DNA of 64,000 nucleotides from Candidatus Latescibacterota bacterium (GCA_965243025.1 CBDETY010000003.1:992001-1056000); one strand, 5' to 3'. Counted from the first letter of the stretch, positions 31,405-46,176 are shown. Numbers and translations: made by a program. The notes: a model not told the origin generated them from the sequence alone.

Positions 31405-31460
31405 CAGGGAGCCGGGCAAGATGTTCGAACCCGGGTGGAGACAGAAAGAGGAGCGTACCT
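31405..31460. repeat. Direct repeat of 6905-6960
   Basis: GGAGCCGGGCAAGA..TCGAACCCGGG(G)TGGAGACA..AAGAGGA is present at both sites. Confidence 0.65.
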
Positions 31461-31631
31461 CGTTGCCGAGGCTCAGGACGAGTCCTTGAGCCCCCTCGGA
31501 CAGATGATGACGGTGTAATCGTCCACACGGAACATCGTAGGATCGCCCCTCCCGGCTGCGTCGCGTGCCTGTATTTTCGTTACCGGCTAAAGGATAGGCG
31601 CAACGGATTGCACCTACCCCTCGGTCGGCAG

Positions 31632-31715
31632 CTACCGGCTGCGCCAGTGGTTCAGGACGATCTGAATCACCTCCAGCGCGACTTCCAGCAGAATCGCCAA
31701 CCATCTTGGCATCAT
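31632..31715 (-). CDS. 27-aa hydrophobic peptide (type I toxin-like)
   Basis: MMPRWLAILLEVALEVIQIVLNHWRSR*; ATGA overlap with the upstream stop; below the ORF-track length cutoff. Confidence 0.45.
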   Translation of the reverse strand: MMPRWLAILLEVALEVIQIVLNHWRSR

Positions 31716-32101
31716 GAGGTATCACCCCCTTCCCGTGGTGGGTCTTTCCGGATGAACTTCCCGGTCTCGTCCCGCACTCTGCGCTGGGCAGCCCGCTGGG
31801 CAGCCCGGCTTCTCGGGCTGGGTCCTTCCGGATCTACGCCGTTCTGGATATCGTCGTCAGGGATACCGGAGGTGTCCTGTGGATCGGGCTCCGGCTCCAT
31901 TCCGAAGTCGCGACGGACGACAGACAGCTTGTCCTTCACCTTCGCCTTGATCCACTCGGTATGGACCTTGTTGAGGGCGAGCTTGTAGAGGTACACCCCC
32001 GCTTCTCGGGCCGCGACCACGGCGATGACTTTGACAACGGGTTTCAGGGAGTTCAGCAGTTTCCGCTGTTCGCCGTTGCCGGTGAGGGGATTGGGAATCA
32101 T
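31712..32101 (-). CDS. Hypothetical mobile-element protein
   Basis: GAAGGAG RBS; helical N-terminus; C-terminal RDETGKF motif of the kind seen in phage proteins. Confidence 0.55.
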   Translation of the reverse strand: MIPNPLTGNGEQRKLLNSLKPVVKVIAVVAAREAGVYLYKLALNKVHTEWIKAKVKDKLSVVRRDFGMEPEPDPQDTSGIPDDDIQNGVDPEGPSPRSRAAQRAAQRRVRDETGKFIRKDPPREGGDTS

Positions 32102-32373
32102 GAGGGTTCTCCTTCGCGTTCAAATGTCCTTCGGACGCCCGGGGGTCTTTCCTCCGGCCTCCCGGGACAGCAGTTAGATGAGTTGCCTTGCCCGGCCTAC
32201 GGGCAGGATGATTTCGTAGGTGCCGCCTCCCTGGCGGCCCCCTTGAATGGAGATTCCAGGTATCTGAAGTCCAGAAAGGAAGGTGCATTCCTCAACGGTC
32301 TGGATCTCCACCGTGCGATGTTCGACCATGCGGTTTCCTTTGTTTGAGCGGTTTGGTGTTGCGGGAAGAGCAC

Positions 32374-32408
32374 AAAAAAGCCCCCGGACCTTGGAAGAGT
32401 CGGGGGGA
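32374..32408 (-). terminator. Rho-independent terminator downstream of the transposase
   Basis: On the minus strand a CCCCCGAC...GTCCGGGGG stem is followed by CTTTTTT. Confidence 0.55.
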
Positions 32409-32430
32409 GCAGCGAAGGGCCTGGCTATTT

Positions 32431-43439: not shown

Positions 43440-43600
43440 GGGGGAATCCTCGGAAGCAGCCCGGATGTCTTCCGCAGGATCTCCTCGTCCGCGAGGCCTT
43501 TCCCATCGAGGAACAGGCATCACCAGATGGTATCCCTCAGCGCCACCTTGACGCTCCGTTCCTGAAATCTCCGGGGTAACGACGCGAAGTGTGTCTTCTC
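43440..43600 (-). pseudogene. IS256-like remnant (inverted relative to the 7.4/8.0 kb copies)
   Basis: Reverse complement CCTGTTCCTCGATGGGAAAGGCCTCGCGGACGAGGAGATCCT matches 7466-7507. Confidence 0.45.
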
Positions 43601-44039
43601 CGCCTCGATTCGGTTGACCCGAGACCTCCTCGCCTCCCCTGACCTGCCGCTTGCAGAAGCTAAAGTTTCCCGACGCCATTACGGGGTTTTGCCAATTCCT
43701 CTCAAGGTCCATTTGCTTTTTTAGTCCAGCCAGGTACAATAGAAGCATATGGATCGCCGGAGGCAGGCAGCATCTGCTGCCGCTTCCAAAGTCCCTTCTG
43801 TCGCTGACCCGCCGCCAGAGTCACCTTCCAACCGGGTTCCGTATGGGAGTCGGACCCGGAAAACATTCAAGGGGATGAGGATACCGAAGACGATGACCGA
43901 ATTTCGATTAAGGAGGATTAACTTATTGTAAATAAACATGTTGCAGTAATTTTCACCGCCGGTGAATACATCACATGACGAGAAAATCACAAGGAGAGGA
44001 ATCATCAAAGTGAAAACAAATCAAATACAGGAAACCACG

Positions 44040-44933
44040 ATGAAAACAGATCAACAGAAGGAACCCATGGAAAAGAAACCGGAAGTAACTTCGACGACCA
44101 ATACAGAAAGCGCCGGCCCGAACGAGGCTAAGGGTCGAGCTCTCAAGCGTTGGAAATCGTACAATCGATACGGCAGGAAAACCACCGTGGAAGGCTGGTA
44201 TTGCGGCGGAGACTTGGAGGAGGTTTTCCAGGGGCTTGGGCCCGGAGAGTGGGGAGATTGGCTTGAGTCCGTCGGCATCACCCGGAGCACGGCTGATCGG
44301 TTGAGACTGCTCTCAAGGAGCTATGATTTGGCCCAGGTTGAGGAATTTACCTCTGTGGACCAGGCTTTGAAGGCTTTGGCCGCCCGTTCGAAGCGCAAGA
44401 AGGCGCCCGGGAAGGTCGAACCGAAGGTGGAGACAAAGGGGGAGGCCTCATCCGTCGAGAAGGAGGAAGTCACCGGCGGCGACGGCACTCCGCGGCTTCC
44501 CGTCGAAGGCGAGTCCGCGCAGGAGATTCAGCAGCTCCGCGACAAGCTGCGCGAGGCCGAGGATCGACAGCGCAAGGCCGAGGATCGACAGCGCAAGGCC
44601 GAGGATAAACAGCGCGCGGCGGAGAAAGAGACCGCCGAACTGCGCGAGAAGCTGCGCGAAACCGAGGATGAACTGGGCGTTGCCCAGAAAAGGATCGCCG
44701 AGCTGCTCCAGAAAAACAAGCAGTCCAAACGCCAGCCTGAGGAAAAGGGGACTCCCAAGGAAACAACTTCAGTCGATCGGCAGCAGATATACCACCACGA
44801 CGCCTTTGCCGTACCCCGCGAACATCCGGAGTCGGACGGAGCAAGGACGACCGCAGCGCCTGTATCCGGGAAAACACCGACCCCTCAGCACCCCGAGACC
44901 GGGACCGCCCTACCGGTAAGTGAAGGCAAGTAG
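44040..44933 (+). CDS. DUF3102-like protein with coiled coil (AEDRQRK repeats)
   Basis: G..L......L.PGEWGDWLE..GIT.STA.RL.L pattern typical of DUF3102; 21-bp tandem repeats near 44555-44615; AT-rich upstream region. Confidence 0.65.
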   Translation: MKTDQQKEPMEKKPEVTSTTNTESAGPNEAKGRALKRWKSYNRYGRKTTVEGWYCGGDLEEVFQGLGPGEWGDWLESVGITRSTADRLRLLSRSYDLAQVEEFTSVDQALKALAARSKRKKAPGKVEPKVETKGEASSVEKEEVTGGDGTPRLPVEGESAQEIQQLRDKLREAEDRQRKAEDRQRKAEDKQRAAEKETAELREKLRETEDELGVAQKRIAELLQKNKQSKRQPEEKGTPKETTSVDRQQIYHHDAFAVPREHPESDGARTTAAPVSGKTPTPQHPETGTALPVSEGK

Positions 44934-44959
44934 GGCACGGCGCATTCCCGGTGGACCCA

Positions 44960-45800
44960 GGCTCTTCCCCCTCCCGATTGGCCTTCTGCGGTCGGGCCAG
45001 GCACCGGCAGTTCAGGAGCCCTGCGCGCCTTCGCATCAAGGATTCCTGCACGTCCCCTGGAGCCGGACCTCCGAGGTCGATGGGGAACGGCCAATCCAAC
45101 ACCTCCTGCCTGAAGCGGTCCCATGCTTTCCGAGAGCAGACGTGAGAATCCATCCTCGAAGGCATGGGTCCCTTCCTGCAGGTACTGATTTGCCCGGCCT
45201 GTCCTCAAGTCAATCGGAATGCCGGTGTGGACCCGTCCAAGGCGCGGTCCCGTCATTCAGCTCCCTGAATGCCCGCATCGACCCCTCGGTGGCCCTCTCC
45301 GGGGCCTGCAAGGGGGTCGTCCTGGAAAACGCGGAATCACCTTCCAACGGGACCGGCACCTGTTTTTCATCGGCCGGATCGTCCGCCTCTCCCCTGAAAG
45401 ACCCGACCGGGATCAGCGGAGCGTCGGTCCGGCAGCCCCGGCGGTTCCTCTGCCCGGTTGCCAGGACCAATCCGGCTCGATGACCCCTTCGCAATCCATT
45501 CTGAGGGTCCTGTGGTCTTTTCGAGCCGGCGGCGGTCAAAGAGGTTCCCGGCGGTTCACCGGACAACCTCGGCCCCTGCCGCATCGACGGGGACCCCGTC
45601 GATTCACCCCTGGCAGACGGCACGATTCCTGCTCCGGTCATCCAGATGAAGTGCGGGACCCGGGTCTTCATCGCCGGGGCCTCAAGGCCCCCTTGAGGGT
45701 TCCTGGTGCTCTATTTCCAGAACCAATCCGGTTGGGGTGACGCCTTCGCAATCCGCCAGGTCCGGCCTCCACGACAGCTGGGGCTCCGGCCCTGACGTTG
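44960..45800 (-). pseudogene. Heavily decayed, internally duplicated sequence, possibly IS110 transposase debris
   Basis: Internal repeat 45460-45500 vs 45718-45755; faint GLVLE/GLVLATG and LMRRRA.LL echoes. Confidence 0.2.
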
Positions 45801-46163
45801 CTTCTACTCGCTGGAGTTTTTTCGCCGAAGGTGCTGGTTTTGAAAAGGGGAAGAGGGTATCGGACAACGCACCAGCGATAATATCCCTAAGGGTACGAAT
45901 GAGGTATACCGGGATCGGATAGAACAACCCGTTTGGTCGCTTGGCAGGGGGGCTTCATGTTTCCAAAGATCATTTGGCGTAACCCCATTGATTACAGGAA
46001 GTTATAGACAAAAAAAGGCGGCCGGTCAGACCACGACGAGGTGGATCCCCCTCCTCCAGTTCAGCCAAATTCTGGAAATTTTTTCCAGTGTCTTGTATTA
46101 AATAAATATATACCCGGACCTTAATTTATCTGTAATTCCCTTAAATTACCCTTGCTTTTTTTT

Positions 46164-46176
46164 GTATATAATTCCC
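46164..46176. repeat. Candidate IS1595-family terminal inverted repeat end
   Basis: GTATATAATTCCC directly abuts a WD40 gene that begins mid-repeat; degenerate echoes at 46104-46151. Confidence 0.45.

Follow-up and report, generated by a model that had tools for sequence, protein, structure and literature searches.

The right end of a probable 186-kb IS1595-family transposon with a conserved internal module in Candidatus Latescibacterota

Insertion sequences (IS) of the IS1595 family reportedly include elements with passenger genes, such as ISNwi1 and ISNha5, for which Siguier, Gagnevin and Chandler are said to have used the term 'transporter IS' in 2009. To our knowledge, the described passenger elements of this family measure a few kb and do not exceed about 8 kb. 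Larger cargo is carried in bacteria by Tn7-like elements, which have TnsABC. RadC/JAB and DUF3560 are among the genes that plasmids and phages carry in leading-region or early sets. The rule for the IS1595 family is an 8-bp target duplication (PMC12561309). According to the same report, Tn7560 is a compound transposon flanked by ISApl4, a complete IS of 712 bp that is bordered on either side by 14-bp inverted repeats and is also mobile alone, and the IS copies associated with the transposon were among the four insertions for which 8-bp repeats were not identified (PMC12561309). Starships are large cargo-carrying transposons of fungi (PMC9156397). Their enzyme is a tyrosine recombinase.

We analysed a window of 64,000 nucleotides from a genome of a sponge-associated Candidatus Latescibacterota bacterium (GCA_965243025.1 CBDETY010000003.1:992001-1056000), in which a preliminary description had flagged the interval 31460..46176 as a mobile element. 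In all likelihood, this interval is the right end of a 185,993-bp IS1595-family transposon that carries a conserved module. This transposon and its relatives resemble the ISNwi1/ISNha5 type in their DDE transposase with an N-terminal zinc ribbon, GG-starting inverted termini, 8-bp duplication and non-transposase genes between the ends. Unlike that type, however, they measure 26–186 kb against the few kb of described IS1595 passenger elements, end in inverted arms of kilobase length that carry a transposase gene apiece, and hold a third transposase paralogue in a central module together with RadC, SWIB-DnaJ and XRE genes. With Tn7560 they have in common an IS1595-type transposase at both ends and cargo between. 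The IS1595-mobilised units described here are unusually large, and carry defence genes and eukaryote-like repeat proteins.

Termini, target duplications and empty sites

The genome under study (G000) contains five giant elements (I–V) of 34, 40, 45, 49 and 186 kb, whose inverted termini begin at either end with GGGAATTAT or GGGATATATG; all five terminus pairs are accompanied by a perfect 8-bp target duplication. The GGGAATTAT end fits the 'ggnnatTAT' end of the ISNwi1 group, to which the elements may belong. When the whole genome was scanned with the terminus pattern, eight forward and seven reverse termini were recovered; among forward and reverse termini separated by less than 600 kb, five pairs had the same 8-mer on the outside, and these are exactly elements I–V, whereas the unpaired termini lie at 421246, 1945200, 3354081, 4268279 and 5365865. 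The pattern occurred in three of the 41 relatives searched, which are all three genomes of the genus, the other two being designated G001 and G002. A sixth element, with AACGCCAC on both sides and the same features, was found in a congener (G001:C11:1182940-1208810). Terminus pairs can evidently become separated, because in G002 a distance of 2.27 Mb, in a rearranged geometry, lies between two termini with a common 8-mer. Stand-alone relatives in other phyla begin with GGGAATTATATAC in four of six copies examined, a sequence identical to the first 13 nt at the right end of element I.

Elements II–V possess inverted arms of 2.1–2.6 kb with 81–100% identity, each with an outward-reading IS1595-type transposase gene (tnp2; 103–108 bits in profile searches), and have only the arms and the module in common. 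The cargo of the giant elements includes giant WD40 and LRR proteins, together with a type I restriction-modification system in element II, and the GC content of the elements is 0.55–0.62 versus 0.654 for the contig. As units of tens to hundreds of kb with accessory and defence genes, the elements are similar to Tn7-like elements and to Starships, but enzymes, target choice and end structure differ, which makes this an analogy of scale and not a matter of membership.

Element I (G000:C3:852184-1038176) is the largest of the five. It covers window positions 1..46176, it begins about 140 kb before the first letter of the window, its exact right terminus is position 46176, and the flagged interval forms its right-terminal 14.7 kb. 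The left terminus reads GGGATATATGTA... and the right terminus ...TATATAATTCCC, both flanked by the identical 8-mer CCAACATC, the right copy of which occupies 46177..46184. A WD40-LRR gene (46152..48050, plus strand; Pfam) is the 3' part of a gene interrupted by the element. In G001, the counterpart of the left flank is C11:1338721-1339400 and that of the right flank is C11:1339397-1340207, and in G002 the flanks correspond to C1:3004325-3005011 and 3005004-3005827; in both genomes they are contiguous with an overlap of 8 nt, and the 8-mer is single. For element II (34 kb), the flanks likewise overlap by 8 nt (G002:C1:1454338-1454345 and G001:C11:845145-845152), one base of the overlap being extrapolated where the left query ended one base before the duplication. 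The empty-site comparison covered elements I and II against G001 and G002. Because the congeners hold, for both elements, an uninterrupted target with abutting flanks and one 8-mer, the whole unit is shown to have been inserted, or to be lost, as a single piece by DDE transposition. At the scale of whole elements, the features tested for the IS1595 family, namely inverted termini, 8-bp duplication and empty site, were all present.

An empty site, both ends and a target duplication, which the preliminary description proposed to look for, were found for element I, with the site empty in both congeners. Its large IS1595-mobilised element is borne out by termini, 8-bp duplications and empty sites, at a size of 186 kb and not 15 kb; the proposed right boundary at 46176 is correct, whereas the left one, at 31460, is replaced by the distant end upstream of the window.

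The right arm of element I (43627..46176, plus strand) is recognisable by its leader (43627-43832), which resembles the sequence upstream of arm transposases, and by its terminus. At the transposase position there is instead a 323-aa coiled-coil gene (43962-44933), followed by the tail and the terminus. The left arm has a transposase gene. The two ends of the element represent different subtypes, and past the tips the similarity of the arms is confined to a stretch of 73 nt. Between module and right arm lies debris (42113..43626) with a second copy of an arm motif (42715-42733) and pieces of the coiled-coil gene in inverted orientation, and the ORF translations of this debris look non-coding. 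Element I contains three internal module copies, that of the window and two more, as well as a partial arm relic at C3:998300-998359; because of these, it may have grown via nested insertions or recombination, before or after its arrival. The IS1595 transposase of the window was taken for the only intact recombinase, a claim that fails in view of the left-arm transposase and the two further modules.

The internal module and its core genes

In the window, the module spans 31582..42112 (10.5 kb including an intron) and is one of seven copies in the genome; the six others were recovered by blastn, and all seven lie inside elements I–V. Each giant element contains the module, which consists of XRE, zinc-ribbon, SWIB-DnaJ, short RadC and tnp1 genes, the gene of a 129-aa protein and a slot with variable genes. 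The left boundary is common to seven of seven copies, and a 10-nt inverted match, ACCGGCTAAA, is found at 31582 and 42103-42112. The right arm of the module (42024..42112, plus strand), common to module copies, bears a promoter-like motif, ends ...CTTTTAGCCGGT, and shares homology with the outer arm found in the giant elements. Homologues of the module also occur in loci of G001 and G002. Conservation of the gene set, made up of transposase, RadC, SWIB-DnaJ, XRE and zinc ribbon, is confined to this genus, where it occurs in the seven G000 copies and in G001 and G002; none of 79 loci around ~50%-identical transposases in other phyla has it.

The IS1595-family DDE transposase gene tnp1 (32431..33423, minus strand) is intact, as proposed earlier, with matches to PF12762 (115.7 bits, cut-off 27) and NF033547 (162 bits, cut-off 75); its N-terminal zinc ribbon scores 22.9 bits against PF12760, under the cut-off of 25.4, and the protein is 52% identical to the arm transposase. 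The neighbouring RadC (33473..33925, minus strand; PF04002 143 bits, TIGR00608 138.4 bits), likewise correctly named, is an element-type short form with the JAB domain only: the TIGR00608 match covers positions 93-217 of 218, and the N-terminal domain of full-length RadC is absent. It is 58% identical to the chromosomal radC. A 100-aa conserved ORF (38396..38698, minus strand), with homologues in three G000 copies and in G001, G002 and G004 loci, adjoins the short RadC gene in other loci. In three loci of G004 and one of G002, this pair occurs and an IS1595 gene is absent within ~9 kb, which shows that genes of the module can occur apart from the transposase.

The SWIB-DnaJ fusion (33961..34481, plus strand) is a real family, as an intact 164-aa paralogue demonstrates (L009:6865-7359; SWIB 74 bits, DnaJ 50.7 bits), but relative to that paralogue the window copy has lost 13 nt at 34277 and gained 1 nt at 34402 and is frameshifted, so that the SWIB ORF (33961-34296, 79.7 bits) is left with a J domain out of frame. 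The predicted zinc finger proves to be a double-CxxC ORF of 73 aa (39134..39298, minus strand), intact in six of seven copies (72-76 aa) and disrupted here by two 1-nt insertions at 39221 and 39140. For the XRE-type HTH regulator (41215..41460, minus strand), the HTH_3 score of 20.4 bits remains under the Pfam cut-off of 23, but the assignment is backed by a paralogue matching PHROG regulator families at E 6e-8; compared with paralogues, intron sequence replaces its last ~13 codons. The 129-aa ORF (31712..32101, minus strand), present in seven of seven copies, starts with a hydrophobic helix at the N-terminus and has a basic tail; it has 36 unannotated relatives, and Pfam, NCBIfam and PHROG returned no match. 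The window copy is decaying, with frameshifted SWIB-DnaJ and zinc-ribbon genes, a Ku relic and a group II intron.

Among the copies, dN/dS is 0.16 for tnp1, 0.06 for RadC, which is the tightest constraint in the module, 0.25 for the zinc ribbon in intact copies only, and 0.25 for the 129-aa ORF over only 67 gap-free codons (range 0.00-0.71). Judging from domain names, the XRE and zinc-ribbon proteins may regulate the module, and RadC and SWIB-DnaJ may assist when the DNA-protein complex is processed or remodelled. The outer termini would be acted on by tnp1, tnp2 or both; tnp1 is the closer relative of the stand-alone IS copies beginning with the same 13 nt.

Competing accounts of the elements

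The paired transposases could also mean that the giant elements are compound transposons, in which two complete, mobile, inverted IS copies flank chromosomal DNA and the module is mere cargo. The full transposase gene at both ends in each of elements II–V is in keeping with this, and Tn7560 flanked by ISApl4 provides a precedent (PMC12561309). However, the arms display the outer terminus only, the inner one having been found neither by local alignment nor by pattern, both of which a diverged end would escape; a solitary complete 2-kb arm copy with its own duplication was not found either, and the same module resides in all five G000 elements and in the G001 element, which is unexpected from chance capture. 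In that inner ends and solitary arm copies were not found, in the core module of all elements, and in the 8-bp repeat of five out of five, the elements differ from Tn7560, and we consider a compound origin unlikely. On a smaller scale, ~31.5-42.1 kb (or 31.5-46.2 kb) may itself be an autonomous IS1595 transposon nested in the larger element, moved by tnp1 (32431-33423) via its own ends, putatively ACCGGCTAAAG repeats. The left boundary falls on the same base in seven copies, and likewise in short G001 and G002 pieces; ACCGGCTAAA is an inverted match at two independently mapped boundaries; an exact 11-mer occurs five times in the contig, four of them at module left ends; an XRE part in G002 lies between perfect 10-bp inverted repeats, CCGGCTCAAG, 910 bp apart; and tnp1 is intact and under purifying selection. 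All of this speaks for movement of the module, but no convincing 8-bp duplication was seen when the ends of the seven copies were read by eye, the nearest candidates agreeing in 6/8 and 7/8 bases by reading without a scan. Moreover, no copy lies outside a giant element, similarity among the copies extends 50-86 nt past the left repeat, identities by segment are incongruent as expected of recombination rather than fresh transposition, and no empty site of the module was found in G001 or G002. We hold a self-moving module to be quite unlikely.

That the region is what remains of a prophage or an integrative conjugative element, later decorated by IS, with repeats that arose by segmental duplication, is highly improbable. 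RadC and DUF3560 are indeed known from phages as well (phrog_10276, phrog_6744), and the module copy pairs A872/C1322 (98%) and E4257/F6028 (96%) have long common flanks. Nevertheless, termini, duplications and empty sites are precise and of the kind that DDE transposition produces, and integrase, relaxase, secretion and virion families matched none of 104 ORFs of at least 70 aa in 30.8-50.5 kb (E<=0.01), none of 18 large ORFs in the rest of the window and none of 17 ORFs of element II, which agrees with the absence of integrase, relaxase and virion genes noted at first. The transposon of 185,993 bp shares with leading-region sets a RadC-JAB and a DUF3560 gene beside genes for nucleases and helicases in a variable slot; in contrast to them, transfer and replication machinery is absent, and RadC is a fixed core gene adjoining the transposase instead of belonging to a region that is first to enter a recipient.

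Slot cargo, the Ku relic and the group II intron

The slot of the window copy holds a second SWIB gene, an HNH-type nuclease gene, DUF3560 and ORFs without assigned function. The short second SWIB gene (34754..35032, minus strand; PF02201 40.4 bits) has homologues in G001 and G002 loci and confirms, with the SWIB-DnaJ gene, the two SWIB genes of the preliminary description. A GmrSD_C (DUF1524/HNH-type) nuclease-like gene (34911..35831, plus strand) matches PF07510 with 27.3 bits (cut-off 23), and its paralogue in copy L009 has an additional Excalibur domain. DUF3560 (35771..36946, minus strand), also rightly recognised, matches PF12083 with 106.8 bits and phrog_6744 with 209 bits, and its true start is likely an internal Met near residue 117.

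Because of its position just before DUF3560, a 159-aa ORF (36988..37467, minus strand) with three relatives only is our guess for the gene formerly called clamp-like. Next to it lies a 200-aa ORF (37508..38110, minus strand; GC3 0.85, phrog_19191 E 5e-6), for which a search for relatives found none. The clamp identity is not supported: of the DNA_pol3_beta families, PF00712 and PF02768 have no match in the window and match only the chromosomal dnaN, and the candidate aligns with the DnaN of the genome at an hhalign probability of 0.06 over a 17-residue motif; the structure models of the two ORFs, with pLDDT 46 and 30, respectively, are unusable.

Ku, reported earlier as a gene, is present as a pseudogene relic (38732..39109, minus strand). 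Ku would have been the best witness for the protection of incoming or excised DNA that the preliminary description suggested as a possible role of the cargo. PF02735 scores 19.7 bits at 38984-39109, below the cut-off of 25, and covers model positions 102-146 only; in a tblastn search with the chromosomal Ku, aa 130-169 align at 50% identity, and aa 263-300 match separately at 38732-38803. The first ~130 residues are missing, several stops occur across the three frames, and the relic, in our reading of these frames, appears to be frameshifted, with no complete Ku core domain in a single open frame.

Three items were missing from the preliminary description: the complete group II intron, the GmrSD_C-type gene and the terminus at 46176. 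The flagged interval also encodes the reverse transcriptase of this intron. The intron (39314..41234, plus strand) shows ribozyme domains (RF02005 178.5 bits, threshold 49; RF00029 39.1 bits, slightly below the threshold of 40), an RT/maturase ORF (39525-41183; TIGR04416 346 bits, cut-off 300) and the 5' GUGYG motif as GTGCG at 39314. It separates the XRE gene from the zinc-ribbon gene and is oriented antisense to the host operon; its site is uninterrupted in the other module copies, and a 93% identical copy of the intron is found in G001.

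Termini, target duplications and empty sites of the giant elements

The interval 31460–46176, first presented as a cryptic mobile element of about 15 kb that IS1595 may have mobilised, is not self-contained but forms the right-hand end of an IS1595-family transposon of 186 kb. Within it lie, besides a group II intron and debris, a decaying copy of the conserved core module of these elements and a right arm that has no transposase. The IS1595 DDE domain has 23 matches in the source genome (G000), and both Pfam and NCBIfam assign the transposases to the IS1595 family. Besides the module transposase (tnp1), there is a second group (tnp2) with 52% protein identity to tnp1, whose copies looked like insertion sequences of 2.1–2.4 kb in which one end was sharp (...ATAATTCCC) but had no inverted counterpart. 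Comparison of the 8-mers outside these ends showed the tnp2 copies to form inverted pairs 34–186 kb apart, each pair sharing the same 8-mer. The reading of the 2-kb "group 2" copies as ordinary insertion sequences was therefore rejected, as they are the arms of giant elements; no inner ends of the arm copies were found.

A genome-wide scan for the terminus pattern returned eight forward and seven reverse termini, with exactly five oriented pairs having identical 8-mers. The outer termini begin GGGAATTAT... and GGGATATATG..., and the pairs delimit element I (C3:852184–1038176; 185,993 bp; 8-bp duplication CCAACATC), element II (C3:1304677–1339122; 34,446 bp; GAACGAGG), element III (C3:1941107–1986021; 44,915 bp; CTCGTAGC), element IV (C3:4234635–4283179; 48,545 bp; CGACGCGA) and element V (C3:6017644–6058067; 40,424 bp; ACCAGAAC), with element GC of 0.55–0.62 against 0.654 for the contig. 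Elements II–V possess inverted arms of 2.1–2.6 kb (81–100% identity), and have only these arms and the module in common. All seven modules of the genome lie inside elements I–V, three of them in element I, which may have grown to hold three by nested insertions or recombination.

The right terminus of element I is position 46176, the very end coordinate of the preliminary description, and the duplication follows at 46177–46184. Its right arm retains a leader (43627–43832) as precedes arm transposases elsewhere, with a 323-aa coiled-coil gene (43962–44933) in the transposase position. The adjoining 41.5–43.6 kb, in which inspection of ORF translations gave no credible genes, contains duplicated arm fragments and inverted pieces of this coiled-coil gene.

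The movement of these units is directly evidenced by empty sites in two other genomes of the genus, G001 and G002. The left flank of element I (684 nt) maps to G001:C11:1338721–1339400 and G002:C1:3004325–3005011, and its right flank (824 nt) to G001:C11:1339397–1340207 and G002:C1:3005004–3005827; in both genomes the flanks abut with an overlap equal to the 8-nt target, and the 186 kb are absent. The target is a WD40–LRR gene, the 3' part of which is the ORF 46152–48050. Element II gave the same empty-site result in G001 and G002. IS1595 chemistry has here moved units of 34–186 kb, whose termini are of the kind seen in small members of the family and whose duplication is again of 8 bp. The early proposal of a large IS1595-mobilised element was right in kind, as termini, 8-bp duplications and empty sites attest, but wrong in scale and ends; empty site, both ends and duplication were found for element I, but neither empty site nor duplication for the module.

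Each of the three genomes of the genus has the terminus pattern, whereas a search of 38 other relatives did not find it in any. In G001, termini at C11:1182940 and 1208810 bound a 25.9-kb element that holds the G001 module copy, with AACGCCAC on both sides. G002 has four termini, two sharing an 8-mer 2.27 Mb apart in rearranged geometry and two unmatched. The sharing pair (G002:C1:958103 and 3233153; outside 8-mer ATGCAATC) face each other, an arrangement to be expected had a large chromosome segment been inverted by recombination between element copies.

Two further features were observed. Between arm transposase and terminus, the arms of elements II–V (e.g., G000:C3:4234635–4235400) carry a non-coding tail of ~750 nt, in which reading revealed internal direct repeats and an outward-pointing promoter-like motif (TTGCAAT...TATATTATACCAGATTTT), and a related motif, in inverted orientation, was read in the leader that precedes the arm transposase. 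A third transposase type, 48% identical to tnp1, is encoded at G000:C3:670411–671355 and 1275220–1276164, within two stretches that are 100% identical and at least 4.9 kb long.

The internal module and its group II intron

By blastn against the whole genome (6.8 Mb, three contigs, with the window at C3:992001–1056000), the segments 31.5–34.6, 39.1–39.3 and 41.25–42.1 kb recur six more times. Clustering of ORFs defined a module core of a 129-aa ORF, tnp1, RadC, a SWIB–DnaJ fusion, an ORF of ~90–130 aa (two sequence clusters, of which copies hold either or both), a zinc ribbon and an XRE gene, with a variable slot between SWIB–DnaJ and the zinc ribbon. The slot holds a 588-aa ResIII/DEAD helicase in one other copy and a GmrSD_C–Excalibur nuclease in another; in the window it is filled with SWIB, an HNH-type nuclease, DUF3560, ORFs without assigned function and a Ku relic. 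Comparison of the copies shows purifying selection on the core genes, with dN/dS of 0.16 for tnp1, 0.06 for RadC, 0.25 for the zinc ribbon and 0.25 for the 129-aa ORF (from 67 aligned codons only). Segment identities are incongruent between module copies, which points to recombination among them.

The gene content of the window copy was established by a Pfam scan of all 104 ORFs of at least 70 aa over 30.8–50.5 kb, together with NCBIfam, PHROGs, PADLOC and a GC3 frame plot. On the minus strand lie an XRE-type HTH gene (41460–41215, from profile scans), a double-CxxC zinc-ribbon gene (39298–39134), the Ku relic (39109–38732), a conserved 100-aa ORF (38698–38396), ORFs without assigned function of 200 aa (38110–37508) and 159 aa (37467–36988), DUF3560 (36946–35771), a short SWIB gene (35032–34754), a short RadC (33925–33473), tnp1 (33423–32431) and the conserved 129-aa ORF (32101–31712); the plus strand carries a SWIB gene (33961–34296) and a GmrSD_C-type nuclease gene (34911–35831). 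PADLOC returned the intron reverse transcriptase, weak JAB and XRE-HTH matches and two other weak matches, and nothing else. There was no usable Protein Atlas match for the 200-aa or 129-aa ORF, neither the 159-aa ORF nor the DUF3560 protein had a PDB sequence match, and AlphaFold models of the 200-aa and 159-aa ORFs (pLDDT 29.8 and 46.1) were too low in confidence for fold comparison.

Most genes of the preliminary description are thereby confirmed, including its "SWIB-J": paralogues encode an intact 164-aa SWIB–DnaJ fusion, of which the window copy has lost 13 nt at one place and gained 1 nt at another. Frameshifts in the window also affect the zinc-ribbon gene, which is intact in the six other module copies. 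Its Ku and clamp-like genes did not hold up. "Ku" is a pseudogene relic, scoring 19.7 bits with Pfam Ku (cut-off 25) within an open frame of 59 codons; with the chromosomal Ku as tblastn query, residues 130–169 (50% identity) and 263–300 were recovered as separate pieces and the first ~130 residues were missing, while the rest, from three frames read by eye, seems to continue out of frame. The "clamp-like" gene, presumably the 159-aa ORF since this directly precedes DUF3560, resembles a DnaN motif over 17 residues only (hhalign probability 0.06), and the sole matches to two clamp domain families were to the chromosomal dnaN, none being in the window.

Whether the module is itself a transposable unit was judged from its ends. 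The left boundary falls at the identical base in seven of seven copies, a 10-nt inverted match (ACCGGCTAAA) stands at the two boundaries, and the internal module repeats read ACCGGCTAAAG. On the other side, local alignment of left against right ends of the seven copies gave no long and convincing inverted repeat, and no 8-bp target duplication was seen on reading these ends, near-matches of 6/8 and 7/8 bases at two copies being within chance. No empty module site was found in G001 or G002 with L009:1–14000 (an extracted locus) and window 27001–47000, nor in G000 with the flanks of the G001 element.

Several rearranged forms were seen. Contigs from four sequencing runs on 30000–46500 are short and mostly from paralogues; one from run X6 joins 31688 to 42010 with 3 nt between, which would equal a module reduced to its two ends, although at 90% likeness this metagenomic joint may belong to a relative. 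The metagenomic protein P0032, a hybrid of zinc-ribbon N-terminus and 129-aa-ORF C-terminus, may be a deletion product joining two ends of a module. In G002 (L096:2148–3057), the XRE part occurs without zinc-ribbon gene as a ~0.9-kb unit enclosed in a perfect 10-bp inverted repeat (CCGGCTCAAG), with many copies in G002 and G001, and may represent a small non-autonomous element.

A complete group II intron (39314–41234, +), overlooked in the preliminary description, lies antisense to the host genes between the XRE and zinc-ribbon genes and replaces the last ~13 XRE codons. It matches RF02005 with 178.5 bits and RF00029 with 39.1 bits (just under the threshold of 40), encodes a reverse transcriptase/maturase (TIGR04416, 346 bits), and has GTGCG at its 5' end; G001 has a copy 93% identical. 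Sequencing-contig joints from 39298/39301 to 41240–41265 skip the intron and fit intron-less paralogues. In another module copy (L007:10399–11329; G000:C3:959398–960328), the same intron is represented by a deletion derivative of ~930 nt that has no ORF and occupies another position, lying upstream of the XRE start instead of after the XRE gene; a sequencing-contig joint skipping 39889–40905 matches this derivative.

Family relationships and distribution of the core genes

The IS1595 type is familiar from small insertion sequences, with a passenger gene in a few of them; passenger-carrying members in ISfinder are of a few kb, and "ggnnatTAT" is the end of the ISNwi1 group. In metagenome-assembled genomes of other phyla, stand-alone copies of 1.0–1.1 kb encode transposases of ~50% identity, and four of six examined start with GGGAATTATATAC, the first 13 nt of the right end of element I. 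Within 10 kb of 79 such loci there is no RadC, SWIB, XRE, zinc ribbon or DUF3560, and the module is thus lineage-specific, its gene set being conserved as module copies within the genus but not beyond. As tnp1 is closer to the stand-alone transposases (47–54% identity) than the arm transposase is (42%), it may be tnp1 that recognises the outer ends. ISApl4, a characterised IS1595 member, has an 8-bp duplication and short inverted repeats (PMC12561309), and the giant elements are like it in their 8-bp duplication. Giant IS1595-family transposons, or this gene set, were not found described in the literature covered, which lay mostly outside the subscription journals.

The short RadC consists of the JAB domain only and shares 58% identity with the radC that the genus carries in its chromosome. 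Together with its 100-aa neighbour, it also occurs in a further relative (G004) and at one G002 locus without IS1595 gene nearby, so that the link between module parts and transposase is not a strict one. Genes for a GmrSD_C nuclease and a ResIII helicase adjoin each other at one G004 locus, about 5–8 kb from RadC. Such a side-by-side pair in G004, with a ResIII/DEAD helicase (L094:14867–18009), is 82% and 75% identical to cargo genes in two different G000 module copies and may form a two-gene defence-type system. The SWIB–DnaJ fusion is rare, both domains falling in one stretch in two (P0043, P0046) of the best 150 of 1.84 billion representatives.

Cargo and a possible role of the core

Element II has a type I restriction-modification system (HsdR, HsdS and HsdM) and a further DDE transposase. 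At least two large proteins encoded in it are of the WD40 type, and a third large ORF spans a locus border. The part of element I in the window encodes an MFS transporter, a hybrid sensor kinase, a 1748-aa WD40 protein and LRR proteins of 1476 and 2152 aa. Parts of the window are contained in "sponge metagenome" sequencing runs, one of which was among the four used for contig comparison; no RNA run was listed as containing the stretch. Giant WD40 and LRR "eukaryote-like" proteins are thought to mediate host contact. The elements carry cargo of two kinds relevant to sponge symbionts, restriction/nuclease genes and giant WD40 and LRR proteins, and therefore offer a concrete and testable route for such genes to multiply and spread.

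The conserved core poses the question of what a very large DDE transposon needs beyond its transposase, its outstanding features being the rare SWIB–DnaJ fusion and the short RadC under very tight constraint. We put forward, as a speculative and rather doubtful idea, that a lineage of giant DDE transposons (26–186 kb, with kb-long inverted arms and an obligatory RadC/SWIB–DnaJ/XRE/zinc-ribbon core) could be the vehicle by which WD40/LRR and defence genes spread in this sponge-associated genus, the core letting a simple IS1595-type transposase move ~100 times the length of an ordinary insertion sequence. The roles of XRE/zinc ribbon, SWIB–DnaJ and RadC are those we infer; as one possibility, the J domain would recruit DnaK so that the transposition complex is taken apart, and RadC might process DNA ends.

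Three minor observations concern the repeat-protein genes. A weak match to the Rfam radC RNA motif (47524–47672; 31.3 bits, threshold 40; E 0.01) lies inside the WD40–LRR coding sequence and is probably due to chance. The last ~440 nt of this gene (47555–48000) recur with 70–88% identity at over 25 genomic sites, presumably as a C-terminal domain common to repeat-protein families. A WD40 protein of G002 carries a Por_Secre_tail sorting domain.
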